A stretch of DNA of 64,000 nucleotides, taken from assembly GCF_043195095.1 (NCBI RefSeq), contig NZ_JBAFWN010000001.1, one strand, 5' to 3'. This stretch comes from Xanthobacter sp. VTT E-85242 (GTDB taxonomy: Bacteria; Pseudomonadota; Alphaproteobacteria; Rhizobiales; Xanthobacteraceae). Position 1 is the first letter of the stretch. Each line of letters opens with the position of its first letter. Both the position numbers and the translations under genes were made by a program. This document shows positions 5,039 to 35,448 of this stretch, in pieces. The notes beneath the pieces are model-generated. The model saw nothing but the letters and a program-made list of their open reading frames with translations, was not told the DNA's origin and searched no databases.

Positions 5039-5050
5039 GGATCTGTCCCG

Positions 5051-6922
5051 TCAGGAGAGCTGCGGCAAGGCAAAGTGTTCGCGAAGCAGGCCGAAGGTGA
5101 GAACGACCATCAGAAAGTCATCCTCGAAGGTCTGGTTCAGCTCGGTCTTCGGATCGAGGTATCGGGTTTTGAGATGGGCGATGGCCGCGGGGTTGAAATA
5201 GCCGTCGGCGCGGATGCGCTCCTCGTCCAGCAGGTCGAGCACCTGTGGTTCGCGCGCGCGCAGCAGGCGGGCGCTGGAATGGGCGACGAAGGAGAATTTC
5301 TTGCGGTCCACGATCTGCGCCGGCAGATAGCGCCGCGCCACCTGCTTGAGAACGAATTTCTCCTCCCCGCCGCGCACCATCAGAGCGGGTGGAATGCGCC
5401 GCGCCACGTCGATGACGCCGAGGTCGAGGAAGGGATAGCGCGCCTCCACCGAATTGGCGAAGCTCACCCGGTCGCCATGGTCGGCGAGCAGATGGTCCGC
5501 CATGCGCAGCTTGAAATCGAGATAGGAGCGGATATGGAAGGGGTGGCGGCCGGCGATCTGGCTGCGGTCCACGACATCGCCGGCGAGGCAATCGAAGCTG
5601 TCGAAGCGCGCCGCCACCGCATCGGCATAAAGGCCCTGGCGGCTCTCGCGGCTGGCGGCGTAATTCTTCTCATAGAAAAAGCCAGGATCGCCCCACAGCC
5701 GCTCGCGCCATTCCGCCTCGATCATCTCGTCGAGGTCGAGGCTGTCCGCCGCAGCGCCGCCGCGTTCCATGTCGAGCCGATAGCCCACATAGCCGCCGAA
5801 CAGCTCGTCCGCGCCCTCCCCGGTGAGCACCACCTTCAGGCCCGCGTCGCGCACCATGCCGGAGAGCAAGAGCGAGCAGACATTATAGGATTCGCGCAAC
5901 GGCGCCTCGGCGCAGCGCACGATGTCGGCCAGCCGCCGCGAGAGGACGGAGGGGTCCACCTCCGCCTCGTGATGCACGGTGCCGAGCCGCTTCGCCATCA
6001 GCCGCTGGGGGCCGCGCTCGTCCATGGCACGGTCGGGGAAGGTGATGGAGAAGGTGTGGCGCGTGGATGAGCCCGCCACATCGGCCACGATGGCGGCGAT
6101 GAGCGAGGAATCCAGTCCGCCGGACAGATAGCCACCCACCGGAACGTCGGCCTGGAGGCGATAGCGCACCGCCTGCCGCAGCGCCGCGTCGAGCTCCTCG
6201 ACGCACTCCTCCAGCCGACGCGGCGCGATGTCCTGCGCGAGGGGATAATCGAGGTCCCAGTATTTCTGGACCTTCAGGGGCTTGTCGGGGTCCGCCACCA
6301 GCACATGGCCGGGCGGCAGGCTCTTCACCTCGGCGAAGATGGTGCGGGGCGAGACGAGGCCGGGAAAGGTGAAGATCTGGTCGAGCGCGGTCAGGTCCAC
6401 CGTGCGGTCCAGGGCGTTGTTCGACAGCAGCGCGCGGATTTCCGAGCCGAACATCAAGAGCCCGTCGCGCTCGGCATAGAAGAGCGGCGCGATGCCCACA
6501 TGATCGCGGCCAAGCACGAGCCGGCGGGTCGTCCGGTCGAACACCGCGAATGCGAACTGGCCGTTGATGCGGCGGGCGAACTCGACTCCATATTCGGCGA
6601 ACAGCGCGGGCACCAATTCGGTGTCGCAGCGGGTGGCGAAGCGGTGGCCCCGGCTCTCCAGGTCGGCGCGCAATTCGGCGTAATTATAGATCTCGCCGTT
6701 GCAGATGCCCACCACGCGCCCCTCGGCCGCGAACATGGGTTGGCGGCCGGCGGCGAGATCGACGATGGAGAGCCGGCGGAAGCCGAGGCTCACCACCTCG
6801 TCGCTGAAAAAGCCCTCATCGTCCGGCCCGCGATGGCGCAGCGTATCCGCCATGCGGACGATGAGATCGTCCGCAACCGTGGGGCCGGGGTGGCGCCTGA
6901 GATATCCGACAATTCCGCACAT
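5051..6922 (-). CDS. asnB: Asparagine synthetase (glutamine-hydrolysing)-type class II amidotransferase, 623 aa
   Basis: N-terminal MCGIVGY (Ntn Cys2 nucleophile of class II glutamine amidotransferases), GPDDEG motif, C-terminal synthetase domain with SGGLDSS PP-loop. Start codon sits 3 nt after the megasynthase stop; its own stop is 12 nt before the next NRPS start. Confidence 0.9.
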   Translation of the reverse strand: MCGIVGYLRRHPGPTVADDLIVRMADTLRHRGPDDEGFFSDEVVSLGFRRLSIVDLAAGRQPMFAAEGRVVGICNGEIYNYAELRADLESRGHRFATRCDTELVPALFAEYGVEFARRINGQFAFAVFDRTTRRLVLGRDHVGIAPLFYAERDGLLMFGSEIRALLSNNALDRTVDLTALDQIFTFPGLVSPRTIFAEVKSLPPGHVLVADPDKPLKVQKYWDLDYPLAQDIAPRRLEECVEELDAALRQAVRYRLQADVPVGGYLSGGLDSSLIAAIVADVAGSSTRHTFSITFPDRAMDERGPQRLMAKRLGTVHHEAEVDPSVLSRRLADIVRCAEAPLRESYNVCSLLLSGMVRDAGLKVVLTGEGADELFGGYVGYRLDMERGGAAADSLDLDEMIEAEWRERLWGDPGFFYEKNYAASRESRQGLYADAVAARFDSFDCLAGDVVDRSQIAGRHPFHIRSYLDFKLRMADHLLADHGDRVSFANSVEARYPFLDLGVIDVARRIPPALMVRGGEEKFVLKQVARRYLPAQIVDRKKFSFVAHSSARLLRAREPQVLDLLDEERIRADGYFNPAAIAHLKTRYLDPKTELNQTFEDDFLMVVLTFGLLREHFALPQLS

Positions 6923-6925
6923 GGC

Positions 6926-21601
<14,676 letters not shown>

Positions 21602-21695
21602 GCCTATGACAGGTGGCTAAATCACGATGTCTTATGAAGGACGCACTTCATCTGTAATTTCATTTCGGAAACGCCGGTGCGCGGGGGCGGAGACC

Positions 21696-22814
21696 ATGAC
21701 AGATACGACAAACACCCCGTCTCGGCACGATCAGAACATAAGCCGGCAACGCGCCCGGGATGCCGGCTTGCGCCTGCCCGGCCAAACGGGACCGCTGAAC
21801 GCAATCACAGACGTACCAGGGGTTGAAGTCGGTTTTAATACAATCATCCGGGACGATGACACGCCGGTGCGCACCGGCGTCACCGCCGTGCTGCCGCGCC
21901 CGCTCGCGCAGGTGGTCGACCCGGTGTGGGCCGGCTTCTTCTCGCAGAACGGCAGCGGGGAGATGACCGGCACCCATTGGATTCGCGAGGCCGGCTGGCT
22001 CTCCGGCCCGATCACTATCACCAACACCTTTTCCGTCGGCCTCGCGCACCACGCCACGGTGCGCTGGATGTGCAGGCGCTTCCGCGACAAATTGGACCAT
22101 GAAAGCTGGGTGATGCCGGTGGCTGCCGAAACCTTCGACGGCTATCTGAACGACATCGTCGGCCAGCATGTCACCGAGGACGACGTGATCGCGGCCATCG
22201 AATCGGCCCGCTCCGGCCCGCTCGAGGAGGGCAATGTGGGCGGCGGCACGGGCATGATCTGCTACGGCTTCAAGGGCGGCACCGGCACCGCGTCGCGCCG
22301 CGTGCGCACGCCGGCCGGCACCTTCACGGTGGGCGTGCTGGTGCAGGCGAACCACGGCATTCGCCCCTGGCTCCAGGTGCTCGGCCTGCCCGTGGGCCGC
22401 CATCTGCCGGATCCGCGCGGCATCAATCGCGAAAGCGGCTCCATCATCGGCATCATCGCCACCGACGCGCCGCTGTATCCGACCCAATTGGAGCGCCTCG
22501 CGCGGCGCGGCGGGCTTGGCATCGCGCGCGGTGGCACGCCCTCGGGCAATGCCTCGGGCGACATGTTCGTCGCCTTCTCCACCGCCGGCGGGCCCGGGCC
22601 ACTGCCGGAAAAGCCCCTCTCCACGCTGGAGTGGCATGCGAATGAGAGCCTCGATCCGCTGCTGTTGGCGGTGGTGGAGGGCATCGAGGAAGCGGTGCTA
22701 AACGCGATGCTCATGGCGCGAACCATGACCGGCCGCGTCGGCACCATCGCCGCGCTCGATCCGACGGAGCTTTTCGCCGCGATGGATCAGGCGGGCGGCG
22801 AATGGCGGGCGTGA
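21696..22814 (+). CDS. DmpA/BapA-family (peptidase S58, Ntn-hydrolase) aminopeptidase: L-aminopeptidase D-Ala-esterase/amidase or beta-peptidyl aminopeptidase homologue
   Basis: Family-typical GGGTG, ATDAPL, glycine-rich body. Using the ATG at 21696 (MTDTTNTPS...), the predicted autoproteolytic Gly|Ser pair falls at residues 248|249 (ESG|SIIGIIATDAPL, nt about 22437-22442), essentially the DmpA Gly249|Ser250 position. The track ORF begins at 21627, but its first 23 aa look non-native. Divergently transcribed from the megasynthase. Confidence 0.8.
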   Translation: MTDTTNTPSRHDQNISRQRARDAGLRLPGQTGPLNAITDVPGVEVGFNTIIRDDDTPVRTGVTAVLPRPLAQVVDPVWAGFFSQNGSGEMTGTHWIREAGWLSGPITITNTFSVGLAHHATVRWMCRRFRDKLDHESWVMPVAAETFDGYLNDIVGQHVTEDDVIAAIESARSGPLEEGNVGGGTGMICYGFKGGTGTASRRVRTPAGTFTVGVLVQANHGIRPWLQVLGLPVGRHLPDPRGINRESGSIIGIIATDAPLYPTQLERLARRGGLGIARGGTPSGNASGDMFVAFSTAGGPGPLPEKPLSTLEWHANESLDPLLLAVVEGIEEAVLNAMLMARTMTGRVGTIAALDPTELFAAMDQAGGEWRA

Positions 22815-22839
22815 GGGGCGACGAACCCCGGGGTCGCGG

Positions 22840-23397
22840 TCAGGGCTGCTTGGACGCCGCCGGGCACCGGGATCGGTCGAAAATGCCCATTGCCATCGGG
22901 GCCACATAGGTCAGTTGATCGCCGCGGCGCGCACCGTAAAGATCGTACAACAGGCCGAGCATCATATCGGCGACGCGGTCAAGGTCCTCACCGGGTTTCA
23001 GAATGACCAGAAGCTTCTGAAAATTCCCTTCTGAACTGTCGGTGTCGAACCCCGCCGCTTCCAGGATCGCCAAGTTGCTCATTCGCACCTCGTCCCGGAC
23101 CTCGCCTTTCTTCACGCCATAGAAGCCGGAGGCCGCCTCGCACAGCATCTGAATGTTGTCCTCCAGCAGCAGGCATTGCACATATTGCTGGTCCCCGCCC
23201 TTCACCGACACAGCGACAAATCGGTCCATCTTTTGCCGCACGAGGTAGGTCACGAAGAGGCGGTCTGAGATCTTGCAGTGGTTCTCGGCGATGAATGTCG
23301 CCCGCCCGTCCGCCGCCATGGCCGACGGCACAAGAAAGGCCAGCCAGACGCAGGCAGCCGCAAGCCGCACCAGAGTCCTCACCCGATTCGCATGCAT
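22840..23397 (-). CDS. Hypothetical secreted protein (signal peptide, 4 Cys), 185 aa
   Basis: N-terminal h-region LVRLAAACVWLAFLVPSAMAADG. No family recognised by eye. Lies between the two peptidase genes. Confidence 0.5.
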   Translation of the reverse strand: MHANRVRTLVRLAAACVWLAFLVPSAMAADGRATFIAENHCKISDRLFVTYLVRQKMDRFVAVSVKGGDQQYVQCLLLEDNIQMLCEAASGFYGVKKGEVRDEVRMSNLAILEAAGFDTDSSEGNFQKLLVILKPGEDLDRVADMMLGLLYDLYGARRGDQLTYVAPMAMGIFDRSRCPAASKQP

Positions 23398-23511
23398 GAT
23401 CAGCCCCCGCCGTATCGGGGCGAAAGCTTAACCTGTGCGCGAAAGTTGCGTAAGGAGAGGCGAGCAAACGCGGCTGCAACCAAAGCGCACAGGGCGGCCG
23501 ACGCTTCTCCG

Positions 23512-25134
23512 TTACAGGCGGTCGAACACCAGGTCCGCGCTCTGGTCGGAATTCAGCACAAGGCCGCCGGGTCGCACCCACGCGCTGAACAGCCAGGCGG
23601 AATTCCAGGGCGAGGCCAGCCAACGCCCGTGCAGATCCTCAGCGTCGGGCACCGCGCGGAACAGATCGCCGTCGCAGGCGAGGAGGCGCGCCCGGCAGAT
23701 GCCATAAGGCGAGGCGAGTGTGATGCGCAGGTCGCCCGCGTCTCCCGTCACCTCCGCCTCAAGGGCCACGTCCCGCGCCCGGTAGCGGCCGCGCGGATCG
23801 GCGCGCGGCGCGTCCGGGCGTGCGGGCACGAAGCGCGCGACGCGCCCCCAGCGCGCGATGTGCAGCGCCGCGCCCGCCTGCGCCAGCACCGCGAGCGGCG
23901 GCAGCGCCATCTGCGGGATCACCCAATCTCCCTCACCCGGCCCCTGCTCCGCCGGCACCAGTGGCGCCGGCCCCATGCTGGTGGTGAGCGTCGCGCCCGC
24001 TGCGTCCGCCGCGAGCTCCAGCACGCGCCCGCCGCCCTCCTCCCGCCACACGCCGCTCATGGCCCGCAGCGGCGCCAGCGCTTCCTCGGGCAGAAACGCG
24101 GCGGAGGGACGGCGCAGCAGGATGTCCAGCACCTGCCGCACCAGCGCGAACACCGGGATATCCTCGCGATTGGCGATCAGCACCACGCCGAGATCGGGGC
24201 CGGGAAAGCGCACGGATTCCGAACGCGCGCCCACCACCGAGCCGCCATGCCCGATCCCCACCACGCCGCCATGGACCGTACGCACGAGGCCGAGCCCGTA
24301 CGGCGAGGGGCTGCCGCTGGCGAGCGGCACGGCATCGGCGGGCTCCATCTGGCTGATGATCGGATCGCCGGAAAGATGCCCGGCCCGCAAATGCTTCTGC
24401 CAGCGCACCATATCGGCGCGCGTGGACACCAGCCCGCCCTCCCCGCCCAAGGCGGCGAGCGACATGGCGCGTAGGAAGCCGCCGGCCCCGTCGCGGCGAT
24501 AATGGCCGGCGAGGCGCGGCGTCCATTCATCGTCCCGCCACAGCAGGCGGGTGTCGGCCATGCCGAGCGGGCCGGTGACATAACGTGCCAGCAGATCCTC
24601 GAACGGCGCACCAGAGGCCGCCTCCACCGCATCGGTGAGCAGCAGGAAATTGCTGTTGGAATAAAGCAGGTCCGCGCCCTCTTCGGCGGCGACGCCGGGG
24701 CTCATGGCGATCACCCGCCGCTCCAGGTCGCGCGAGACCGGACCGAGCGCGTTGACCCCGCCCAGCACCATCAGATCCAGCAGGTCGCGGATGCCGCTGG
24801 TGTTGGCGGCGAGGCTGCGCAGGCGCACGTGGCGCCAGGCGGACGGCACCCAGGAAACGTGCTTGCCCACCGCATCGTCAAGCGACAGGCGGCCCGCGCG
24901 TGCCAATTGAAGCGCGAGATAGACCGCGAACTGCTTGCTCTGTGAGCCCACGCGCAGCACGCTCGCGCCATCGAGCGGCACGTTCTGGGCCAGATCCGCA
25001 CGGCCATAGGCGTGTTCCAGCACGCATTCCCCGCCGCTCAACACCGCCAGCACGGCACCCGGCGCATCGTCTTGAATGCGATCGCGAAACAGGCGATGGA
25101 TCTGCGCCGTCTGGTCGCTGTCGGGGATCATCAT
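23512..25134 (-). CDS. Beta-lactamase-fold serine hydrolase of the D-aminopeptidase (DAP) type, 540 aa
   Basis: SxxK (GSQSKQF), YxN (YSNSNF) and HxG (GHGGS) motifs in order in the N-terminal roughly 330 aa, plus an about 200-aa C-terminal extension as in Ochrobactrum DAP (520 aa). Confidence 0.7.
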   Translation of the reverse strand: MMIPDSDQTAQIHRLFRDRIQDDAPGAVLAVLSGGECVLEHAYGRADLAQNVPLDGASVLRVGSQSKQFAVYLALQLARAGRLSLDDAVGKHVSWVPSAWRHVRLRSLAANTSGIRDLLDLMVLGGVNALGPVSRDLERRVIAMSPGVAAEEGADLLYSNSNFLLLTDAVEAASGAPFEDLLARYVTGPLGMADTRLLWRDDEWTPRLAGHYRRDGAGGFLRAMSLAALGGEGGLVSTRADMVRWQKHLRAGHLSGDPIISQMEPADAVPLASGSPSPYGLGLVRTVHGGVVGIGHGGSVVGARSESVRFPGPDLGVVLIANREDIPVFALVRQVLDILLRRPSAAFLPEEALAPLRAMSGVWREEGGGRVLELAADAAGATLTTSMGPAPLVPAEQGPGEGDWVIPQMALPPLAVLAQAGAALHIARWGRVARFVPARPDAPRADPRGRYRARDVALEAEVTGDAGDLRITLASPYGICRARLLACDGDLFRAVPDAEDLHGRWLASPWNSAWLFSAWVRPGGLVLNSDQSADLVFDRL

Positions 25135-25218
25135 CGGTGGTCCATCCCTGCGCGCGCATCCGCGCCGGAGGGGCAGCGCGTGGCCCTCCCGGCGGCTGTG
25201 AAAAGGAGAGCGGGGCGG

Positions 25219-25997
25219 TGATCGAACTTTACCTGCTCGCCCTCGACCGGCTCGGCCCGCGGGAGGATGCGCTTTTCGCCGCCGTGCTGGACGCGGAGGA
25301 ATGCGCCCGCGCGGCGCGCCTGCGCTTTGCGCGCGATCGCACCGCCTTCATCGCCGCCCATGCGCTTGCGCGCTTCGCCCTCAGCCGCGCCCGCCCCGCC
25401 GTCCCGCCGGCCGCTTGGCGCTTTACGGCGCCGCCGCTCGGCAAGCCCGTGGCCCATGCCGAAGGCGGCGCGGGCGTGAGCTTCAGCCTCTCCCACACCG
25501 CCGGGCTGGTGGCGGTGGTGGTGAGCGAAGACGGCCCGCTGGGCGTCGATGTGGAAGCCATCGTTCCGGCCACCGCGACGCTGGATCTCGCCACCGCCTT
25601 CTGCGCGCCGGCCGAGCATGCGGCCCTGGCCGCGCTCAAGGACGAGGCCGCCCGCGCCCGGCGCTTCTTCGCCCTGTGGACCTTGAAGGAAAGCCTGCTG
25701 AAGGCGGCCGGCCTCGGCCTCTCCCAGGCGCCGCAGACGGTGCAGTTCGCGTTCGATCCGTTCGCGGTGACGCAGCTTTCCGGAGCGGCGCGCGGCGACT
25801 GGCAGCTGTGGAGCGGCGTTGCGCCGCCCGGCCATTGCCTGGCGGTCTGCGCCGGAGGCGAGAAGCAGCCGCATCTCGCCGCCTATACGATCAACGACGG
25901 CGCGGCGCTGGCAGCGGGCGCCGCCTTGCCGGACGGTGCGCTGACGGACGCGTCGCTCACGCTCAGCACCTGCCGCAGCAGGGCCAGCACCGTGTGA
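25219..25997 (+). CDS. 4'-phosphopantetheinyl transferase, Sfp type
   Basis: GTG start (VIELYLLALD...). FSLSHTAGLVAVVVS and WTLKESLLKAAG (W/KEA) motifs. The ORF tail overlaps the convergent NRPS gene by about 115 nt. The upstream extension in the track (24900..) is not supported. Confidence 0.8.
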
Positions 25998-28900
25998 ACA
26001 TGGGGCGGGTGGAACATGGAATAATGATCCCCACCCACCTCGTGCAACACGAAGGGGCCCCGCGTCGCCGCCCGGAACGCCACGCCGCCCGCGCGGGGCA
26101 CAGCATCCGCCGCCTCGATGCACAGGATGGGCGCTGAGAGAGGCGCCGCCTCTGGCCGGTGGGCGCGGGCGATCGCCTGATTGTGGGCGGCGAGGCGTTC
26201 GATGCGGGCGAAATCCTCCGCCGGCAATTGCTCCATGATGGCGAGCACCCGCCCCCAATAGGGCGTGGTGCGCAAGTGCGCGAAGGTGAAGGCAGCGGGC
26301 GGCGTCGCGCCCTTTTCCGAGGCTCTCTCCTCCGGCGCCGCATCGAGCAGGACGAGGGTGACCGCCCGCCCGCGCGCTTCCAGCAGCCGTGCGGTCTCGA
26401 GCGCGAAATGCGCGCCCAGCGACCAGCCGACCAGCCGCACGGGATGGGTGCTTTCCACCGGCACTATCTGCGCCGCAAACAGCGCCGCCGCCGCCGCAAG
26501 GCTCGGCGCGAACGGCATGTCGGCATCGAACCCCGGCGCCTGCAGGCCGTAGCACGCGACATCGCAATCGAGCGGCTCGGTGAGATCGCGATAGAGCGTC
26601 GAGGTGCCGAGCGCGGGCGGGAAGAAGAAGGCCACCGGCGCGCCGGGCGTGCCTGCGCGCAGCTTCAGCAGCGGCGCGGGCGCCGCGTCGGCCGGTGGAC
26701 GCTCCAGATGAGCGGCGAGCGCGCGAATGGTGGGATGGTCGAACAGGGCGCGCAAGGTGAGCTGGCGGCCAAGCGCCGCCTTGGCCTTCGAGACCAGGGC
26801 GATGGCTTTGAGGCTATGGCCGCCGAGGGCGAAGAAATCCTCCTCCAGCCCCACCTGTTCGAGGAACAGCACCTCTTTCCAGAGCGTCCGCAACCCCTCC
26901 TCCAGGGCGCTGCCGGGCGCATCCGCGCGGGCGCCGGCGGCGGGGGCGCGCCAATGCTCTTCCAGCGCCTTGCGATCGAGCTTGCCATTGGCGGTCATGG
27001 GAAAGCGCGAGATCGGGAAGAACCGGCTCGGCACCATGGCCGGCGGCAGGCGGGCGGCGAGCGCGGCGCGCAGCGCTCCGGCATCGGCGCCCGCGCCCTC
27101 GGCGAGGATCACATAGGCGAACAATTCCGCCGTGCCGCTGCGCGCATCCACCACCGCAGCGGCATCGGCGACCTGCGGCAGCGCGCGCAAGGCGGCTTCC
27201 ACCTCCTTCAGCGAGACACGATAGCCGCGAATCTTCACCTGGTCGTCCATGCGACCGAGGAATTCCAGCTGCCCGCCGGGGAGCCAGCGCACCTTGTCGC
27301 CGGTGCGATACACGGGCACGTCGCTCGCGCCCGGATCACCCGACAGGGACAAGCGGGTGAAGCGCGCGGCATCCGCGGGGGACGCGTTCACATAGCCCTG
27401 GGCGAGCCCCGCGCCGCCCACCAGCAATTCACCCGCCACCCCTTCCGGCACCGGCCGCAGGGTGTGGTCGCACACGAAGGCGCGGGCGCCCACGATCGGC
27501 CGGCCGATGCGCTGCGGCCCTTCCCCGGCGCGGGCGAGATCGTCCAGCGGCCCGCTCACGCAACCGATGGTGGTCTCGGTCGGCCCGTAATGATTGGCCA
27601 GCGACACGTGCGGCGCGAGCCGCTGAAGATGCTGGAGATCGGCGAAATTCTGCCCCTCCCCGCCCAGCAGGATGAGCCGCAGGTCCCGCGCGTCGGCGAA
27701 CGCCGCGGCGCTGCCGGGCGTCGCCATCAGCATGGCGAGATAGGAGGGGGTAAGCTTGAGCAGCGTGAGCCTATGGGCGGCGAGCAGCGCCAGCACGTGC
27801 TCGGGATCGCGGCGCGCGTCCTCGTCGAGCAGCGAGAGGCAGCCGCCGCCCAGCAGCGCTCCGAAGATGGCGGTATAGCCGAGATCGAACGCCGGCGAGG
27901 TGAGCAGCGCCGTGCGGATCGGAAAGGTCGGCCCGCAGCGCTGCACCAGCCAGGACACATAGGCGAGCAGCGCCCCATGGCCGATGCGCACGCCCTTGGG
28001 CTGGCCCGTGGTGCCCGAGGTGTAGATGACATAAGCGGTGGGATCGGCCGGCAGCGGCGGCAGGTCGGCACACGCGAGCTCCCCCGCCGCGTCCCGCGCG
28101 CGCTCCAGCTCCTCTTCCAGCGACAGCAGCGCCACGCCGTCCACCAGCTCCGGCAGGCGCTCCGGCGCCGCGCTCAGCACCAGGCGCGCGCCGCAATCGG
28201 CGAGGATATGGCCGAGCCGCGCCGGCGGGCTCGGCAGATCCAGCGGCACATAGGGCACGCCCAGCAGAAGGCAGGCCAGCATGGCGGTTGCCAGCCCTTC
28301 TCCCGCGTCCGCATGCAGCGCTACCGGAATGGATGGGGTAGCGCCAAGGTCCGCGAGCCGCTGGGCGAGGTGGCGCGCGTGACGCTCAAGCGCCGCGTGG
28401 GACACGATCCGCGCGCCGATCCGCAAGGCCGGCGCCTCGCCCTCCCGCGCGACCAGGGCGGCACGCGCCGCGCGCAGATCAATCGCCGGGGCCGGCAACG
28501 CCCCGCCATGGCCCCACGCCATCACCCGGTCGTGCTCCTCCCGGCTCATCAAGGTGAGGTCGTCGACCGCGCGCTGCGGGGCCTCCGCGATTTGCTCCGC
28601 CAGCACCTCCAGCCATAGGGCGAGGCGGGAGACGCGTTCCGGGTCCACCACGTCGGCGTTGAAGGTGAAGGCGATCTTCAGGGCCGCGCCCGGCAAAGCG
28701 ACCACGCCGAAATCATAATTGGAGGTCTGATAGACGCTGACATCCTCGATGGTGACGCCCGGCGCCAGCTCCTGCGCCGCGCCCTGGAAGCGGTCCTCCA
28801 GCGGATAATTCTCGAACACGAAATAATGGCCGATCAGCCCCTGGCGCAGGGGGCTCGCGGCCTGGATGTCGGCGAGCGCGCAATGCACGTTCTCCAGCCA

Positions 28901-29893
28901 GTCCATGCGCTCGTCCTGTGCACGGCGCAGGAAGGCGGAGACGCTCTCGCCCGCCTTCAGGCGCACCCGCAGCGGCAGCATGCCGATGCACGGGCCGAGG
29001 ATCGCGTCCGCGCCCTCCATGTCGGGCGGACGCGTGGACGCCATGGCGCCGAACACCACGTCGTCGCGATCCTCGACCTTCGCCAGCAGCAGGCCCCAGA
29101 GCGCCTGGATCAGGGAATTGAAGGTGGCCCCGCTCGCCTGCGCCCGCGCGGCGAGGCGGCGCGTGAGGTCTGCGGAAAAGCCCGTCGTATGGGTGCGCAT
29201 GTCGCGCCCGGTACCGAGCGCGCGCGCCCGCGCGGCCGGCAGCGGCAAGGCGGTGTCGGCGCCGGCCAGATAATCGCGCCAATAGCCGAGCCCGGCGCGC
29301 GCGCGCCGCGCCAGCGAGGCCTTCACGAAGGCGCTGAACGGCACCGGGCGTGGCAGCACCGGTACGGCGCCGTGCGCATACGCCTGATAGGCCCGCGTCA
29401 GCTCGTCCTGCAGGATGCCGATGCACCAGCCGTCCATCAGGATATGGTGGAAGGAGAACACCACGCGGGCAAGCTCGCGCGTCTCGACCAGCACGCCGAC
29501 CCGCAGCAGCACGTCGCGCTGGAGATCGAACGGCAGCGCCCGCTGCGCCTGCGCATAGGCCTCCACCCGCGCGGCGCGGTCCTGCGCCGGCAAGGCGGAG
29601 AGATCGACGATCTCGCAGGCAAACGGCCGCGCCTTCAGCACGATCTGAAGCGCGCGATCGCCGCCCGTGAGGCGGAACACGGTGCGCAGCATGTCGTGCC
29701 GCGCCACGACCAAAGCAAAGGCGCGATCGAAGGCGGCGACATCCAGCGGGCCGCGGATGGAAAAGCGCATCTGCTGGAAATAGCTGCGCTGCCCGTCCCC
29801 ACCGGCCTCGCGCTCCAGCAGGTCGTGAAAGGCGATGCCCTCCTGGAACGCGGTCAGCGGGTAGATATCCTTGATATTGTCGCGGCTGATCAT
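25883..29893 (-). CDS. NRPS termination module C-A-T-TE, 1336 aa
   Basis: C HHILMDGWC near the N-terminus, A core AYVIYTSGTTGQPKG, PCP FFALGGHSL, TE GWSLGAHFA (GxSxG). Approximate domain spans: C 28570-29893, A 26890-28450, T 26650-26860, TE 25883-26590. Start is 21 nt after the stop of the upstream beta-barrel gene. Confidence 0.9.
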   Translation of the reverse strand: MISRDNIKDIYPLTAFQEGIAFHDLLEREAGGDGQRSYFQQMRFSIRGPLDVAAFDRAFALVVARHDMLRTVFRLTGGDRALQIVLKARPFACEIVDLSALPAQDRAARVEAYAQAQRALPFDLQRDVLLRVGVLVETRELARVVFSFHHILMDGWCIGILQDELTRAYQAYAHGAVPVLPRPVPFSAFVKASLARRARAGLGYWRDYLAGADTALPLPAARARALGTGRDMRTHTTGFSADLTRRLAARAQASGATFNSLIQALWGLLLAKVEDRDDVVFGAMASTRPPDMEGADAILGPCIGMLPLRVRLKAGESVSAFLRRAQDERMDWLENVHCALADIQAASPLRQGLIGHYFVFENYPLEDRFQGAAQELAPGVTIEDVSVYQTSNYDFGVVALPGAALKIAFTFNADVVDPERVSRLALWLEVLAEQIAEAPQRAVDDLTLMSREEHDRVMAWGHGGALPAPAIDLRAARAALVAREGEAPALRIGARIVSHAALERHARHLAQRLADLGATPSIPVALHADAGEGLATAMLACLLLGVPYVPLDLPSPPARLGHILADCGARLVLSAAPERLPELVDGVALLSLEEELERARDAAGELACADLPPLPADPTAYVIYTSGTTGQPKGVRIGHGALLAYVSWLVQRCGPTFPIRTALLTSPAFDLGYTAIFGALLGGGCLSLLDEDARRDPEHVLALLAAHRLTLLKLTPSYLAMLMATPGSAAAFADARDLRLILLGGEGQNFADLQHLQRLAPHVSLANHYGPTETTIGCVSGPLDDLARAGEGPQRIGRPIVGARAFVCDHTLRPVPEGVAGELLVGGAGLAQGYVNASPADAARFTRLSLSGDPGASDVPVYRTGDKVRWLPGGQLEFLGRMDDQVKIRGYRVSLKEVEAALRALPQVADAAAVVDARSGTAELFAYVILAEGAGADAGALRAALAARLPPAMVPSRFFPISRFPMTANGKLDRKALEEHWRAPAAGARADAPGSALEEGLRTLWKEVLFLEQVGLEEDFFALGGHSLKAIALVSKAKAALGRQLTLRALFDHPTIRALAAHLERPPADAAPAPLLKLRAGTPGAPVAFFFPPALGTSTLYRDLTEPLDCDVACYGLQAPGFDADMPFAPSLAAAAALFAAQIVPVESTHPVRLVGWSLGAHFALETARLLEARGRAVTLVLLDAAPEERASEKGATPPAAFTFAHLRTTPYWGRVLAIMEQLPAEDFARIERLAAHNQAIARAHRPEAAPLSAPILCIEAADAVPRAGGVAFRAATRGPFVLHEVGGDHYSMFHPPHVHTVLALLRQVLSVSDASVSAPSGKAAPAASAAPSLIV

Positions 29894-29913: not shown

Positions 29914-31194
29914 TCAGAATTTATAGGTGATCCCGCCACCGATGATGTGTTCGTCGAAATTCTGCGAATTGTCCGACGTGATCTGGTGATTGAATTTGTA
30001 GCCGTATTCGATCGTCGTATGATCGTTCCAGGCATATTGGCAGCCGATCGAATAAACCGACTCGTCATAGACGATCGGCAGCTGGATCGCTTCCTGGACG
30101 ATATATTGGTACCGCACCTCGAACAGCGTCTTGGGATCGTATTGCTTGCGCAGAGCGACGTCGTACGTATTGATGAAGATGCCCGGCGTTCCGGGATAGA
30201 CCAGTTCGGACGCGAGCCGGCTCCAATTGAGCTCGGTGCTCCAGGTGGCATCCATCTGCCATTTCAGCTTGGCATAGCCCACGAGGGTGCTGACGATGGC
30301 AAAGCGGGGATCGGCATAATCCTGCATCAGATAGCCGAGCTGGCCGGATATGTTCAGCGCCGGGTTGAAGGCATAGGAGAAGCCGACCGCCGCCAGATAG
30401 CCGAGAGAATTGCGATCATACAGATCGGTCATAGTGTAAATGGTGCGGTCGAGAGACACCAGCGCATAGACCTTGTCGGTCTTGTTGAAATTATAGCCGA
30501 CTTTGTTGATCTGGTTGAAATCCGCCAATTCATAGAGGCTGGTCGTGGCGCCCGATCCCAGGCTCTGGGAATAGAACTGGCTGTCCTTCATCGAGACCGC
30601 GATCTCGCCGAACCAGGGGCCCTGGTCGTAATCCAGCCCGGTCTTGTACTGCTGCTTGGTGATGGTGTTGAGCGCTTTGGGCACGGCGCCCAGGGCGGCA
30701 TTTGAGAGCGCCTGCTGGGTCGCCTTATAGCTGGAATTGGAGGTCCAATATTCGTTGATCTTGCCGAAAGCGGACGGGTTGAACAGATATTCCTTCTTCA
30801 CCAGCGTATCGTGCAGGACATAATCCGTATACCGATAGGACGCCGCCAGCGCGCCGCCGTAGTTTCCCGCGTCATACTTGATATTGATGGCCGGCGCCGC
30901 CACGAGGCCGAGGTCGCCGCTGGTGGGCGGCGGCAACTCCAGCACATTGGTGGAATACAGGCTGTCGAACGAGACCTGCGGCGCCACCACCAGCGCCCCG
31001 TCGAGATAGCGAAAGCCCGTGGTGGACGTGACTTCGGGCACCTTCAGCGCACGCACCGGCGTCGTGGTGCCGGTATCCTGGTTGTTTTCCTGCGGCGCAT
31101 TCGTGGGCAGAGTGTCCGCCGCCGGGCAAGACGCGATGCCGGCAAACAAAAGCAGCACTGCGAGGACCGAAGGCAGGATCGGGCGGAAGGACAT
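29914..31194 (-). CDS. Outer-membrane beta-barrel protein, possible lipoprotein
   Basis: Start taken at MSFRPILPSVLAVLLLFAGIASC (lipobox-like IASC). Asn/Tyr/Thr/Ser-rich alternating strands, C-terminal ...GITYKF (terminal Phe). The track start at 31233 adds a non-native Arg-rich leader. Confidence 0.65.
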   Translation of the reverse strand: MSFRPILPSVLAVLLLFAGIASCPAADTLPTNAPQENNQDTGTTTPVRALKVPEVTSTTGFRYLDGALVVAPQVSFDSLYSTNVLELPPPTSGDLGLVAAPAINIKYDAGNYGGALAASYRYTDYVLHDTLVKKEYLFNPSAFGKINEYWTSNSSYKATQQALSNAALGAVPKALNTITKQQYKTGLDYDQGPWFGEIAVSMKDSQFYSQSLGSGATTSLYELADFNQINKVGYNFNKTDKVYALVSLDRTIYTMTDLYDRNSLGYLAAVGFSYAFNPALNISGQLGYLMQDYADPRFAIVSTLVGYAKLKWQMDATWSTELNWSRLASELVYPGTPGIFINTYDVALRKQYDPKTLFEVRYQYIVQEAIQLPIVYDESVYSIGCQYAWNDHTTIEYGYKFNHQITSDNSQNFDEHIIGGGITYKF

Positions 31195-31229
31195 CGGGCG
31201 CACGCCGCGACGTCTGGACCGCCCCGCGC

Positions 31230-32783
31230 TCATGGCGCGCGTCCCTGACCGGCCGGCGGCTCCTTCGGCGAGAGCCAGGCCGCCCAGCTGGCGAACAAAT
31301 CGCGCGCGCCGCCGAGGCCGAGCGGGCTGTCGACCAATTGCGCCGTATGCGGCTGCACCACTGGGTCCGGCCGCTCGCCGCTGGAGAGCGAGGCCGTGCC
31401 GGGCGGAAGCGCCCCGGGCAACACCGCCCCCGGGCGCAATTGCGGCGGTCCGCCCTGCTGGCCGGTCGGTGACGGCGCGGCCGGCACCGGCGCTCCGGCG
31501 GCGCGCGCCGCGTCCGTCGCCTCCTGGCGCACCAAGGGGGCGATGGATTGCGGCAGAAGGCCGTTCTCATACGCCCGGGTATAAGCGGAAAGATCGCTGG
31601 ACCACGCGCCCTGCGGCAGGATCGCGCCGCTGCCGCCGGGCGGGCGCTGGGCGAGATCCGGCCGCGAGACATCCAGCGATCCGGACAGCGCGGCGGAGGG
31701 CGCGGGACGATTGTAGTCCGCCGTCGCGGCGGCGGAATTGTGCGCCCCCACCGCACCGAGCGTCCCCAGCCCCTGCGCCTGTTGCTGCGGTGGCGGCGGG
31801 GTTGCCGAATCCCCGGTATTGAGGATCAGCGGCAGCCCGTTATTGCCGCCCACCACCACGGTCTTGGCATTGGGCGAGGTGGCGAGCAGGACGGTGGCCT
31901 CGATGCCGCGCCATTTCAGATAATTCTCCGAAATACCGGATTGCACGGTTTCCTGGAATTTGCGGATGCCTTCCGCCTCGATATATTTGCGGTCGGATTC
32001 ATAATGCTCACGCTCGACGCGATATTGCATTTCCTGCACCAATTGTTCCTGCTCGATCTTGCTCTGGATGGCGGCGACGATGCGCGGCGGCAAGGCCACG
32101 TCGCGCACCAGCACGTCGGTGAGAATAATCAGACAATCCTGCCAATTTCCATTCGCGTTTTCGACCGCAACATCCTGTTGCGAACAGATATAATTCTTCA
32201 CGCCAGGGTCGACGACCGCACGAAATACACGTTGCATCATGTTTTCGCGTGTCGGCCCATAATAATCCCGCACGGCGAACATGGCGAACTCCCGGCGGGT
32301 CGCGGCATTCACCTCGGGCAGAAGCAGGGTCTCGGCATAGCTCGGGCCGAGTTTGGAATTGAGATGCGGCAGGAATTTCTGGTTCAGAAACCAGCGATAG
32401 GTGATGGAAATGGAAATGTTCAGCCCGTCGGAGGTGATCGCCACGATGTCCACGTTGCGGGCCTGAAGGCGCAGATCATAGACATAGATGATGTCCCACG
32501 GCCATTTGATCGTGACCCCGCTGGGAATGGAGAAGCGCAGCTCCGTGCCGCCGAACCGGCGCCACAACACGCCGCCCGAGCCCACCGGCACGTTGACGAT
32601 CATGTAGGGGGCCAGGAACACCACGAACACGAGCGCAACCAGCAGAATCAGGGCGATGCGTCGCCGCAGCCGCCCCCAGCGGCCCGGCCCAACCGGCCCG
32701 GCCCCCTCTTCGACATCGCCCCGCAAGGGCGCGTCGTATCCGATCGGGGGCTCGCCCAACCTGTCGCTCATGGATTCACGCAC
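31230..32783 (-). CDS. SPFH/band-7 (HflK/C-stomatin-like) membrane protein with a long Pro/Gln/Gly-rich C-terminal tail
   Basis: N-terminal TM LILLVALVFVVFLAPYMI, SPFH core (ITSDGLNISISITYRW, ...QSKIEQEQLVQEMQYRVEREHYESDRKYIEAEGIRKFQE), about 200-aa low-complexity tail. Confidence 0.7.
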   Translation of the reverse strand: MRESMSDRLGEPPIGYDAPLRGDVEEGAGPVGPGRWGRLRRRIALILLVALVFVVFLAPYMIVNVPVGSGGVLWRRFGGTELRFSIPSGVTIKWPWDIIYVYDLRLQARNVDIVAITSDGLNISISITYRWFLNQKFLPHLNSKLGPSYAETLLLPEVNAATRREFAMFAVRDYYGPTRENMMQRVFRAVVDPGVKNYICSQQDVAVENANGNWQDCLIILTDVLVRDVALPPRIVAAIQSKIEQEQLVQEMQYRVEREHYESDRKYIEAEGIRKFQETVQSGISENYLKWRGIEATVLLATSPNAKTVVVGGNNGLPLILNTGDSATPPPPQQQAQGLGTLGAVGAHNSAAATADYNRPAPSAALSGSLDVSRPDLAQRPPGGSGAILPQGAWSSDLSAYTRAYENGLLPQSIAPLVRQEATDAARAAGAPVPAAPSPTGQQGGPPQLRPGAVLPGALPPGTASLSSGERPDPVVQPHTAQLVDSPLGLGGARDLFASWAAWLSPKEPPAGQGRAP

Positions 32784-33216: not shown

Positions 33217-33834
33217 TCACAGGACCGGGGCGACCGGGGTGCCGGCCGGCACTTCGGCGACGGGCTCGGCGACCACAACGTCCTTCTTGCGGCCGCGCAT
33301 GGTATCGCCCGCGTTGGACAGAAGAGAGGAGGTGTCGGCGCGGGCCTTTTCAAACTCCTGCACGAAATAGGCGCGCATCTTCTCCGGCTCGAAGTCGAGC
33401 AGCGTGCCGCCGGCTTCGAAATGCTGGGTGAACACGCGGCCGAGCGCGACGGTGGCGGCGGCGGAGAGCGCCGGCATCACGGCGGCGCCGAGCAGGGCGC
33501 CGATGAAGGGCACCGACTTGGCGATGCTGCCGAGGCCGCCGGTGGTCATCACCGCCGGAATGCCGCCGCCGAGCACGGAGGCCGCAACGGCGCGGATCCG
33601 CTCGCGCGAGAACGGCAGGTCATAGACCTTCGCGAGCTCGCCGATCATGGTGTACTGGATGCCCGCCACGCCGGCGACATCCACCACCGGCAGGGGGATC
33701 AGGCCCATGCCGGCCGCCCAGAGCGCGTGCGAACGCACGATCTTCTCGGCCTTGTCCTGGTTGGAGACGAGCGGGGCGGACGCCACGGGGCTGTCCACAT
33801 GCGATTCGTGGTCGTTCTGCACATCGGAAACCAT
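33217..33834 (-). CDS. DUF697-family (YcjF-like) protein
   Basis: GMGLIPLPVVDVAGVAGIQYTMIGELAKVYD matches the DUF697 IPLP-D core as I recall it; flagged for HMM confirmation. Confidence 0.5.
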   Translation of the reverse strand: MVSDVQNDHESHVDSPVASAPLVSNQDKAEKIVRSHALWAAGMGLIPLPVVDVAGVAGIQYTMIGELAKVYDLPFSRERIRAVAASVLGGGIPAVMTTGGLGSIAKSVPFIGALLGAAVMPALSAAATVALGRVFTQHFEAGGTLLDFEPEKMRAYFVQEFEKARADTSSLLSNAGDTMRGRKKDVVVAEPVAEVPAGTPVAPVL

Positions 33835-34599
33835 GGGTCATCCTCACGCGGTTGGATAACGAACATTTCGCGGCCGGACCTGCGCGCCCCTGACGCAACC
33901 TGAAGCCCCGCGGACAGTGCGCCGCGGGCGGACCTGCTGCGACCGGGCTCGCCAGCCCGACAATGATACAATCAAAATTATTTAGTCCGATTTTTTACAA
34001 TCGGATTTCCATTCTGAAGCTTAGCCCGCGGCTTGCCGTCGGCCTTCAAAAGCCGCGCACCCGCAGGCCCATCCCGGACACCATCACGCCGAAAGCCGCA
34101 CATGGCGGCTCATCGCGCGATGCGACGGGAAACTGGCATAAGCGGTTTCAGAAGTCCACATGCTTCACGTATTTAGCTGTCTATCTCAATATACATCTGT
34201 TTTTAAATCTTGCGTGCCAAGCAAATGCTTATGCTTTTGTCATATGCTTGACATCCATCTGCGACACTTCTGCCGCGCGGAAGACGACCTAATCTAATGA
34301 ACTGTCTCGCCTAGGCCTGGTAGGCATGCGCGAGCGCAGCAAACGTGAACGCGAAGCCGCCGTCGTTCGGCAGGTGAGTCTGGGGAACGGCTGCGCGAAA
34401 ATGAAGGCGAATACGCCTCGCCGGGCAGTGGAGGCTGGGCCTCCGCTGCATAAAGGCGAGCCGAACGTATTTTCCGCGAGAGAATATTACAAGTTTTAGT
34501 TGCAATTTTCACATATTCCCACGAACGCGCAGGTCTCACGACCCTACACATATCGGCCTTGCCCCATGGGCCCCGGTCGCCTCGATGAGGAACAGCGTC
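33835..34599. promoter_or_regulatory. 765-bp AT-rich divergent intergenic region between DUF697 (minus) and the type II thioesterase (plus)
   Basis: Local GC far below the window average. Inverted repeat tccgat-N8-atcgga at 33986-34005, three ATGCTT direct repeats at 34225-34248, TTGACA at 34247-34252. No supported ORF. Confidence 0.5.
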
Positions 34600-35448
34600 A
34601 TGAACGGCCTTGGTCTCGCCACGCCGTCCTGCGGCCCTGCCGCCCACACCGCCGGCCGCGTGTCTTGGCCGAACGCCCGCGACGCCGCGCGCAGCAAATG
34701 GCTGCCTTATGCGGAAGGCGGCACCGCGCATTCCCATCGTCTGTTCTGCCTGCCCTTCGCCGGCGGCGGCGCGAGCAGCTTCATGGGGTTGCGGCGCAAT
34801 GCCCCGGCCTGGCTCGATGTGCAGCCAGTTCAATTGCCCGGTCGCGAGAACCGCACGGCGGAACCTGCGCTGCGCAGTGTCGATGAGGTGGTCAGCAGGC
34901 TTGTGGAGGCTTTGCGCCCCTGGCTCGACCGCCCGTTCGGCCTGCTCGGCTATTCGCTGGGCGCGCGGGTCGCCCGCGCCCTGATCCTGCAGCTGCGCCG
35001 CGAGGACCTGCCGCTGCCGCACATCCTGTTCCTTGCCGCCCATCGTGCGCCCAACGCGCCGAGCCGCCGCCCGCCGCTGCACATGCTGCCTTCGGACGCC
35101 TTCTGGGCGCGCCTCGCCGCCTATAGCGGCACGCCCGCCGAAGTGCTGGCGAACCAGGAATTGCGCGACCTGCTGGAACCCATGCTGCGGGCGGATTTCG
35201 AGATGGCCGAGGGCAATATGCCCGTGGCCGCGCCCCTGCCCTGCCCGGTGGTCGCCTTCGCCGGCACCGAGGACCCCTTCGCCGGGCCGCAGGACATGGC
35301 CGGTTGGGCGCTGGAAACGCGCGGCGATTTCGAGCTGGTCACGGTGGAAGGCGCGCATTTCTTCCTGCGCACCAATGCCCGCTGCTTCATGGACCACGTC
35401 TTCTCGCGGGCCGCCCTCCGCCTTCTGCCCCACGCCGTCGCGGCCTGA
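34600..35448 (+). CDS. Type II (editing) thioesterase
   Basis: LFCLPFAGGGASSF N-terminal motif, GYSLGARVA (GxSxG), C-terminal His region, about 280 aa. Confidence 0.85.
   Translation: MNGLGLATPSCGPAAHTAGRVSWPNARDAARSKWLPYAEGGTAHSHRLFCLPFAGGGASSFMGLRRNAPAWLDVQPVQLPGRENRTAEPALRSVDEVVSRLVEALRPWLDRPFGLLGYSLGARVARALILQLRREDLPLPHILFLAAHRAPNAPSRRPPLHMLPSDAFWARLAAYSGTPAEVLANQELRDLLEPMLRADFEMAEGNMPVAAPLPCPVVAFAGTEDPFAGPQDMAGWALETRGDFELVTVEGAHFFLRTNARCFMDHVFSRAALRLLPHAVAA

Follow-up and report, generated by a model that had tools for sequence, protein, structure and literature searches.

What do two peptidase genes do between the synthetase genes of a lipopeptide cluster? The question is raised by a stretch of 64,000 nucleotides from contig NZ_JBAFWN010000001.1 of Xanthobacter sp. 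VTT E-85242 (the window), in which genes for an S58/DmpA-family aminopeptidase and for a D-aminopeptidase-like (DAP-like) S12 serine hydrolase are located inside a non-ribosomal peptide synthetase (NRPS) cluster, between its synthetase genes. This pair has been inherited with the cluster in three lineages, and it probably acts on the lipopeptide of the cluster or on fragments of it. An earlier interpretation made from the DNA letters only (the sequence-only reading) had described three open reading frames between the megasynthase gene and the genes for the phosphopantetheinyl transferase (PPTase) and the terminal thioesterase (TE) module, and all three were recovered at the same positions:

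21696-22814, plus strand: S58/DmpA-family aminopeptidase precursor of 372 amino acids (aa) with a predicted autoprocessing site at Gly248/Ser249; a cluster-dedicated paralogue
22840-23397, minus strand: protein of 185 aa encoded between the two peptidase genes, whose N-terminus resembles a signal peptide and which weakly matches YbjN/TY-Chap3
23512-25134, minus strand: D-aminopeptidase-like S12 serine hydrolase of 540 aa, composed of a beta-lactamase-fold domain and two C-terminal beta-barrel domains

The S58 gene encodes a DmpA-type aminopeptidase

The S58 gene product is the same 372-aa protein as the NCBI-annotated WP_394066618.1; an alternative in-frame ATG further upstream, at position 21627, would extend it to 395 aa. 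It matches the Pfam family Peptidase_S58 (PF03576) over positions 1-305 of the 307-position profile with E 2.7e-110 and 369.1 bits, above the curated Pfam cut-off of 23.9. The best match in the PDB is DmpA from Ochrobactrum anthropi (1b65), which aligns over nearly the full length (E 4e-111, 54.6% identity), and BapA (3n2w) is matched with E 1e-70 and 46% identity. In the alignment with 1b65, the motif NRESG/SIIGIIATD (the slash marks the predicted processing site) places Gly248/Ser249 opposite G249/S250 of DmpA, so both the family and the site named by the sequence-only reading were upheld, and self-cleavage at this position is predicted from the conserved residues.

Across an alignment of 47 sequences, E145, Q217, N219, S249, S287 and G288 are invariant and G248 is nearly so. 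These residues correspond to E144, Q216, N218, S250, S288 and G289 of DmpA, all of which belong to its active centre, and G248 to its G249; Y146 of DmpA is described as variable (PMC9570944). All four cluster-linked S58 sequences have Phe instead of Tyr146; further changes specific to this clade are F99L, A273G and I291M, and together these substitutions may signal an altered pocket. Both DmpA and BapA hydrolyse N-terminal beta-aminoacyl residues and also catalyse aminolysis (PMC9235088). The sequence-only reading had drawn a connection to BapA in particular, and this did not hold: the protein is placed within the alphaproteobacterial DmpA-like group, with BapA as an outgroup. No signal peptide could be read from its sequence.

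The S12 gene encodes a three-domain, DAP-like hydrolase

D-aminopeptidase (DAP) removes N-terminal D-residues. The DAP-like protein of the window is 100% identical to the annotated protein P0121 of Roseixanthobacter glucoisosaccharinicivorans (Xanthobacteraceae), the species to which the window is assigned, and matches the Pfam family Beta-lactamase (PF00144, E 5.9e-47). Its motifs S64-Q-S-K67, Y158-S-N160 and H296-G-G298 are invariant in 39 family members and are the counterparts of S62/K65, Y153/N155 and H287/G289 of DAP (PMC3347556). By the conserved residues, both peptidases of the window appear to have an intact catalytic apparatus.

In a single-sequence search of the PDB, D-aminopeptidase 1ei5 was the best match (E 1.4e-27), and alkaline D-peptidase 4y7p was matched with E 7.5e-20; the family profile aligned to residues 18-477 of the 520 residues of DAP (E 4e-70). 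The AlphaFold model of the protein (predicted local distance difference test, pLDDT, 92.1) was aligned by Foldseek onto full-length 1ei5 with template modelling (TM) scores of 0.82/0.86. The next fold matches, which include SurE (TM 0.50/0.60), ClbP (0.49-0.54), R61 DD-peptidase and class C beta-lactamases, share the catalytic domain and at most one extra domain. The C-terminal 200 residues were modelled as beta strands with high confidence. These last 200 residues gave no match in a single-sequence PDB search, and Pfam DAP_B did not match the protein at E <= 1e-3; homology of the C-terminal domains to DAP is accordingly drawn from the family profile and the fold comparison, not from the single-sequence search. 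With the motifs, the profile alignment and the fold, the SxxK/YxN/HxG signature and the additional C-terminal domains of D-aminopeptidase reported by the sequence-only reading are borne out. Neither a signal peptide nor transmembrane segments were seen in the sequence.

Three other assignments of this gene were rejected. All NCBIfam models for class C beta-lactamases scored far under their cut-offs, and a ClbP homologue and a SurE-type cyclase were dismissed on fold (model and Foldseek).

A short stretch of domain C (residues 494-500) varies among the homologues. It holds His-Asp in 14 of 16 sequences from transporter operons (the other two diverge at that spot), and in the cluster-linked proteins it reads His-Gly in Roseixanthobacter, His-Glu in a metagenome lineage and His-Asp in Pseudochelatococcus sp. 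B33. In DAP, a domain-C Asp has been reported near the substrate amino group (PMC9053604).

The pair is conserved with the cluster in three lineages

Orthologues of both genes were found next to orthologous megasynthase genes at the following loci (protein identities are given for S58 and DAP-like, respectively):

L009 and L010, Xanthobacter sp. VTT E-85238 and E-85241: 94% and 87%; gene order as in the window, small protein present
L002 and L003, metagenome lineage: 81% and 60%; pair directly adjacent with no small gene; PPTase, terminal C-A-T-TE module, porin and SPFH genes present
L001, Pseudochelatococcus sp. B33: 78% and 51%; a type II thioesterase gene between the pair, and a second beta-lactamase-fold gene after it

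The gene orders of the three lineages are rearranged, and in each of them the pair flanks the N-terminal end of the orthologous megasynthase, whose FAAL domains are 68-95% and aminotransferase domains 84-97% identical. The divergence of the S58 and DAP-like proteins keeps step with that of the synthetase genes. Across lineages the S58 protein is 78-81% identical, which is above the other whole proteins compared and above most domains of the megasynthase; equal or higher conservation was seen for KS (81-83%) and aminotransferase (84-86%) only. Thus, the two genes are inherited together with the cluster, in a linkage that resists rearrangement, and conservation with the cluster in related genomes, for which the sequence-only reading had called, is observed.

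The extra beta-lactamase-fold gene of B33 (L001:11734-12720, plus strand) encodes a protein of 328 aa and lies directly after the DAP-like gene. It is followed by SDR, aldehyde dehydrogenase, 4HBT thioesterase, SnoaL-like and alpha/beta-hydrolase genes.

Phylogenetic analysis of the S58 family against DmpA and BapA placed the cluster-linked proteins in a clade of their own (bootstrap 200/200) with a long stem, within the alphaproteobacterial DmpA-type group. The next-best relative outside the cluster-linked set is 68% identical (among 8000 database matches). A housekeeping DmpA of approximately 60% identity is encoded on another contig in R. glucoisosaccharinicivorans, R. liquoris and R. finlandensis, and the outgroups (62-67% identity) occupy unrelated or housekeeping chromosomal contexts. 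The relatives of the DAP-like protein from Labrys, Rhizobium and Nitratireductor (41-43% identity) are encoded in SBP_bac_5/Opp-type peptide ABC-transporter operons, which include amidohydrolase genes in two of three cases and NRPS genes in none. The S58 and DAP-like families were neighbours in none of the six non-cluster contexts examined. The sequence-only reading had regarded conservation elsewhere instead of with the cluster, for instance beside peptide-uptake genes, as an observation that would speak against its proposal. The nearest non-cluster relatives do occur in such contexts (peptide uptake for DAP-like, housekeeping for S58), but they are only paralogues, with identities of 41-43% and 60-68%, respectively. 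Both genes are cluster-dedicated paralogues of housekeeping or catabolic alphaproteobacterial enzymes.

The ratio of non-synonymous to synonymous substitution rates (dN/dS) relative to the orthologues was 0.08-0.18 for S58 and 0.25-0.42 for DAP-like, and both genes are under purifying selection.

Divergent duplicates of housekeeping enzymes inside a biosynthetic cluster form a pattern that is used in target-directed genome mining, which suggests another explanation, namely that the lipopeptide is an aminopeptidase inhibitor (cf. bestatin and the microginins) and that the cluster carries insensitive copies of the targets. Changes close to the active sites, Tyr146Phe and Ile291Met in S58 and two Trp-to-Ser replacements in the DAP-like enzyme, would agree with this. 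However, DmpA and DAP are not known as essential enzymes, which leaves little need for a resistant copy, and microginin-type inhibitors hit metallo-aminopeptidases rather than the Ser-nucleophile enzymes of S58 and S12. We consider this explanation extremely improbable.

The small gene between the two peptidase genes has a different history. Its product begins with a signal-peptide-like segment, MHANRVRTLVRLAAACVWLAFLVPSAMA/AD (read from the sequence), in agreement with the small secreted protein of the sequence-only reading, but orthologues were found only in L009/L010 and are absent from L001-L003, which weakens that reading in this respect; the gene is a lineage-specific insertion confined to the Roseixanthobacter versions of the cluster. 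The match to PF22552 (TY-Chap3/YbjN) reached 26.9 bits, under the cut-off of 27. The protein family has 266 representatives of about 180 aa, the dN/dS of the gene is 0.41, and a single-sequence structure model was unusable (pLDDT 38).

The surrounding gene cluster

The other cluster genes of the window are as follows (domains are Pfam assignments):

2-5050, minus strand: third NRPS gene, A-T-C-A with an embedded methyltransferase, supported by the open frame and by coding GC content at third codon positions
5051-6922, minus strand: AsnB-type glutamine-dependent amidotransferase (Asn_synthase and GATase_7; TIGR01536 446 bits, above the cut-off)
6926-21601, minus strand: megasynthase of 4891 aa, FAAL-ACP-KS-AT-ACP-aminotransferase(class III)-C1-(A remnant)-T-C2-C3-A-T-C4
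25215-25997, plus strand: Sfp/HetI-type PPTase (ACPS; the NCBIfam HetI-like model is under its cut-off)
25883-29893, minus strand: terminal NRPS module of 1336 aa, C-A-T-TE
29914-31233, minus strand: BBP2 porin, cluster-associated
31230-32783, minus strand: SPFH/Band 7 protein, cluster-associated
33220-33837, minus strand: DUF697 protein, cluster-associated
34405-35445, plus strand: type II thioesterase, cluster-associated

The megasynthase gene is divergent from the S58 gene, with 95-155 bp between the start codons, and colinear orthologues of it are present in L009-L017. Since it combines FAAL, polyketide synthase (PKS) and aminotransferase domains, its starter is predicted to be a beta-amino fatty acid, and the protein would build this acyl starter and the first residues of the peptide. 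The C domain of the C-A-T-TE module (C5) best matches the post-epimerisation DCL type (NCBIfam PRK05691, positions 3251-3653), which makes at least one D-residue in the product plausible. Orthologues of this module are 47-92% identical within the cluster family. The third NRPS gene runs off the left edge of the window, for which reason the program-made list of open reading frames lacks it; the cluster therefore extends beyond the window, and the peptide must have more residues than the visible modules account for.

In the first amino-acid module of the megasynthase the A domain is reduced to a remnant (C1-A remnant-T), and two condensation-family domains in tandem (C2-C3), approximately 20 residues apart, come next. 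This layout, at residues ~2260-3810 of the window protein, is kept in all colinear orthologues of L009-L014, L016 and L017. The AsnB gene sits between two NRPS genes, and an orthologue of 60% identity has the same position in Sphaerotilus (L018:16748-18613); the enzyme may serve the module without an A domain or amidate the product.

The incomplete module bears on a synthetic role for the peptidases, in which an activated beta- or D-aminoacyl group, taken for example from a carrier-protein thioester, would be transferred to an amine by aminolysis, feeding this module or extending the free beta-amine by a residue, or the product would be off-loaded or cyclised in the manner of SurE, a structural relative of the DAP-like enzyme. 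Acyl-enzymes are formed by DmpA, BapA and DAP, all of which can also synthesise peptides through aminolysis in vitro (PMC9235088; PMC9053604). Nevertheless, the fold match to SurE is much weaker than that to DAP, the cluster owns a cis TE domain and a type II thioesterase, and the same incomplete module is present in the cluster of a Pseudochelatococcus metagenome-assembled genome (MAG) that is without the peptidases at both ends seen, so that the module must have another loader. A synthetic role is thus very unlikely.

The PPTase and DAP-like genes point away from each other. At its 3' end the PPTase gene runs into the convergent C-A-T-TE gene, with which it shares 115 bp (25883-25997); similar overlaps of 109 bp and 127 bp occur in L002/L003 and L091, respectively. 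The set of porin, SPFH, DUF697 and type II thioesterase genes adjoins C-A-T-TE also in L002/L003, L017, L091 and L092. Across the cluster family C-A-T-TE is accompanied by DUF697, an open frame of about 62 aa and SPFH/Band 7, and usually by the BBP2 porin as well; the DUF697/SPFH/porin group may be an export or envelope-protection module. A promoter and terminator scan of positions 21400-25400 gave results no better than those of shuffled sequences. The segment 50001-56000 has a GC content of 0.57-0.61, compared to 0.64-0.74 elsewhere in the window, and may be a foreign insert.

A proposed role in lipopeptide turnover

What the analysis establishes for both enzymes is their family membership, a linkage that has been conserved, their paralogy and the purifying selection on their genes; their substrates, the reaction direction and the physiological role are inferred. 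The S58 gene would have been recruited from a housekeeping Ntn-hydrolase of the DmpA type into one sub-lineage of a family of FAAL-PKS-aminotransferase-NRPS clusters, and the DAP-like gene from a three-domain S12 hydrolase otherwise found in peptide-uptake operons. In the proposed mechanism, the S58 precursor would cleave itself at Gly248/Ser249, and the new N-terminal Ser249 would attack the amide bond after the N-terminal beta-amino fatty acid, as the beta-aminoacyl specificity of the family suggests. A free beta-amine would be available only in an uncyclised or ring-opened lipopeptide. The DAP-like enzyme (Ser64/Lys67/Tyr158) would then take off the D-residue or residues exposed at the N-terminus. 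The purpose of these reactions would be to clear linear lipopeptide, which would also shield the producer, and not to assemble the scaffold. Our tentative proposal, held with slightly less than even confidence, is therefore that the two enzymes act one after the other in the cytoplasm and trim linear lipopeptide, be it mis-released, truncated or re-imported, from its N-terminus, serving clean-up, recycling or immunity. The absence of signal peptides in both enzymes fits an action on cytoplasmic species.

Several observations weigh against this proposal. Characterised DmpA favours small N-terminal residues (beta-Ala, Gly, D-Ala amide) and not bulky or lipidic beta-residues, so that for this DmpA-type enzyme the acceptance of a long-chain beta-amino acyl group has to be assumed. 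The DAP-like protein scored 139.7 bits with the NCBIfam D-aminopeptidase equivalog NF009622, far under the cut-off of 443, and is therefore a protein of DAP-like architecture rather than a DAP orthologue. Its clade-specific substitutions W225S and W299S lie beside active-site elements, and its specificity may differ from that of DAP. The sequence-only reading had expected D-residues from several C/E-type domains; among the families listed at E <= 0.01, no E-domain marker was found for C1-C5, and what is left of this expectation is the DCL-like C5. The two peptidase genes never share an operon: in the window and in L003 they converge, and in L001 a thioesterase gene on the opposite strand lies between them. 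In the literature we found no precedent for editing or recycling by cytoplasmic aminopeptidases in an NRPS cluster.

The distribution of the pair also belongs among these points. Further colinear megasynthases are encoded in the Pseudochelatococcus MAG (L012), Methylobacterium (L013 and L014), Telmatospirillum (L016) and Azospirillum (L017). In L012, L014 (where Methylobacterium sp. EM32 was checked), L016 and L017, the 10 kb upstream of the megasynthase gene contain neither an S58 nor a DAP-like gene; L013 was left out of this check because it holds too little upstream sequence, and the Methylobacterium clusters were covered at this end only. The pair is likewise missing from the opposite end of the L012 cluster (L091). 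Since this colinear cluster is without the pair at both ends seen, the two enzymes are dispensable for this compound class, and the association with the cluster claimed by the sequence-only reading is conserved in three lineages and missing from these MAG cluster ends. The pair is an accessory of one sub-lineage and not a core part of the pathway.

The absence from the MAG cluster would also be expected of hitch-hikers, that is, of ordinary peptide-catabolic genes that lie inside the cluster and are functionally unrelated to it. The general catabolic or housekeeping nature of the closest non-cluster relatives and the lack of co-transcription of the two genes point in the same direction. On the other hand, neither three or more rearrangements nor 50-80% protein divergence have parted the pair from the synthetase, the cluster-linked S58 proteins form a monophyletic group apart from the housekeeping copy that these genomes retain, purifying selection acts on both genes, and the two families were paired only in this cluster and in none of the six non-cluster contexts. 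We regard hitch-hiking as quite unlikely and retain cytoplasmic trimming of the lipopeptide as the preferred role.

A second, exported S12 peptidase in the cluster family

Six orthologous loci, Pseudochelatococcus sp. B33 among them, carry another S12 peptidase, which resembles alkaline D-peptidase (the best PDB matches of the L017 protein are 4y7p and 3wwx):

L017:5775-9197, minus strand: S12 peptidase fused to an autotransporter beta-domain
L016:6361-9900, plus strand: S12 peptidase fused to an autotransporter beta-domain
L091:3071-6505, plus strand: S12 peptidase fused to an autotransporter beta-domain
L092:727-4689, plus strand: S12 peptidase fused to an autotransporter beta-domain
L018:1317-3404, plus strand: S12 peptidase without an autotransporter domain
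L093:7144-9264, plus strand: S12 peptidase without an autotransporter domain

The enzyme is of an exported type, and its autotransporter-fused form would be surface-exposed. With this unrelated peptidase of the D-stereospecific type in six clusters, two S12 lineages are attached to the cluster family, and the exported enzyme is more widespread in it than the pair of the window. One contiguous cluster of Pseudochelatococcus sp. B33 holds both the exported S12 peptidase and the pair. The two kinds are therefore additive, and a view in which the DAP-like enzyme and the autotransporter S12 peptidase replace one another was rejected. No orthologue of the exported peptidase was found within the 64-kb window; by analogy with L091 and L092, its gene may follow the third NRPS gene, immediately beyond the left edge of the window. 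When metagenomes were scanned with the left-most NRPS segment, only unrelated loci came up.

The exported enzyme also bears on the last explanation of the pair, a role in maturation or tailoring, in which one or both enzymes would process a precursor, for example by removing the beta-amino fatty acyl group or a D-residue as a pro-drug leader in the style of ClbP. The two genes are embedded between the synthetase genes and conserved with them, known pro-drug activators are S12 peptidases, with ClbP among the structural matches of the DAP-like model, and the AsnB amidotransferase together with the incomplete first module is a loose echo of acyl-D-Asn leaders. However, both proteins lack signal peptides and transmembrane segments, and activation in the cytoplasm would defeat the purpose of a pro-drug; this location makes a periplasmic, ClbP-like form of pro-drug maturation, the latter being one of the roles considered in the sequence-only reading, unlikely for the pair. 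In addition, the C-terminal part of the DAP-like protein forms two beta-barrels and not the three helices of ClbP, the colinear Pseudochelatococcus MAG cluster lacks the pair at both ends seen, and the exported, autotransporter-linked S12 peptidase is a better candidate for such a step in this cluster family. Maturation by the pair is consequently unlikely.

A bolder version of the turnover proposal, which we consider doubtful, is that the natural substrate of the S58 enzyme is the N-terminal beta-amino fatty acid of the producer's own lipopeptide and that, together with the DAP-like enzyme, it performs a dedicated two-step unzipping of non-proteinogenic (beta- and D-) residues in the cytoplasm, perhaps downstream of the exported autotransporter D-peptidase. 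To our knowledge, the natural substrates of beta-aminopeptidases have yet to be settled, as these enzymes have been studied mainly on synthetic beta-peptides and small amides, and a clade dedicated to a cluster for an N-terminal beta-amino acyl peptide offers a concrete candidate. If correct, this would provide the first natural substrate and physiological role for S58 beta-aminopeptidases, as well as a complete, producer-encoded route of lipopeptide turnover. Should the two enzymes accept lipidic beta-amino acyl or D-aminoacyl peptides, they would be of use as biocatalysts too.

The cluster family itself, which this analysis brought to light, extends over Hyphomicrobiales, alphaproteobacteria of the Azospirillum/Telmatospirillum type and Sphaerotilus; no characterised product of it was found in the literature. 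Its versions in Roseixanthobacter and B33 hold up to three different peptidases directed at unusual residues, which suggests that turnover, editing or activation of the product is an integral and evolving part of the pathway.

Comparison with known peptidases

The cluster-linked S58 protein shares with DmpA the Pfam family, a near-full-length match, an equivalent Gly/Ser site and the conserved active-centre residues. It differs from DmpA in forming a separate long-branch clade, in being a second copy inside a lipopeptide cluster and in the replacement of Tyr146 by Phe, and from BapA (46% identity) in its type and in lacking the signal peptide that BapA has. The sequence-only reading knew of no such pairing in lipopeptide clusters, and in the literature searched no S58/DmpA enzyme, and no pair of S58 and DAP-type enzymes, was found reported in any NRPS cluster; searches on D-aminopeptidase in such clusters brought up nothing relevant either.

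Like DAP of O. anthropi (MEROPS S12, EC 3.4.11.19, 1ei5), the DAP-like protein has three domains, a penicillin-binding fold and two beta-barrels, and a predicted cytoplasmic location. It shares only about 21% identity with DAP in the structural alignment, and its non-cluster family members sit in peptide ABC-transporter operons. SurE (6ksu) also combines a DAP-related S12 fold with an added beta-barrel domain, and enzymes of its type occur as stand-alone proteins in NRPS clusters. SurE-type thioesterases are found in actinobacterial clusters without a cis TE. The DAP-like protein departs from this type, since SurE has one lipocalin-like domain in place of the two extra domains seen here, and the present cluster is equipped with a cis TE as well as a type II thioesterase.

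The ClbP-type peptidases of colibactin, xenocoumacin and other biosyntheses (3o3v, 7mdc) share the S12 domain with the DAP-like protein, have their genes in NRPS/PKS clusters and split off an N-terminal acyl-D-amino-acid unit. ClbP resides in the inner membrane; its catalytic domain is periplasmic, and three transmembrane helices make up its C-terminal part. This architecture is absent from the DAP-like protein, which has neither a signal peptide nor such helices. The Lip3 and Lip7 DL-peptidases of Paenibacillus (9sn1) are S12-fold enzymes that cut lipopeptides at D-residues and remodel the products of other organisms (PMC12903863). The structure 9sn1 is the fourth structural match of the DAP-like model; however, Lip3 and Lip7 are not encoded in a biosynthetic cluster and work from the C-terminal side on the lipopeptides of another organism.

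TriF and BogQ are exported, alkaline-D-peptidase-like endopeptidases of Firmicutes, and the ClbP-type peptidases are likewise exported S12 enzymes. TriF and BogQ are reported to be D-stereospecific resistance peptidases of the S12 type that are encoded within NRPS clusters and hydrolyse the producer's own D-amino-acid-containing peptide (Li et al. 2018, Nat Chem Biol 14:381, cited in PMC6095874). They are the nearest functional precedent, alongside the ClbP-type peptidases. The DAP-like enzyme does not belong to this exported type: it has no signal peptide, is closer to DAP and would be a cytoplasmic (exo)peptidase of alphaproteobacterial origin, paired with S58. Within this cluster family, TriF and BogQ have a closer counterpart in the exported S12 peptidase of L016-L018 and L091-L093, which is in most cases linked to an autotransporter. 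Thus, whereas the known peptidases of NRPS clusters serve self-resistance (TriF, BogQ) or pro-drug activation (ClbP), the cluster described here has co-inherited a predicted cytoplasmic pair of S58 and DAP-type enzymes.

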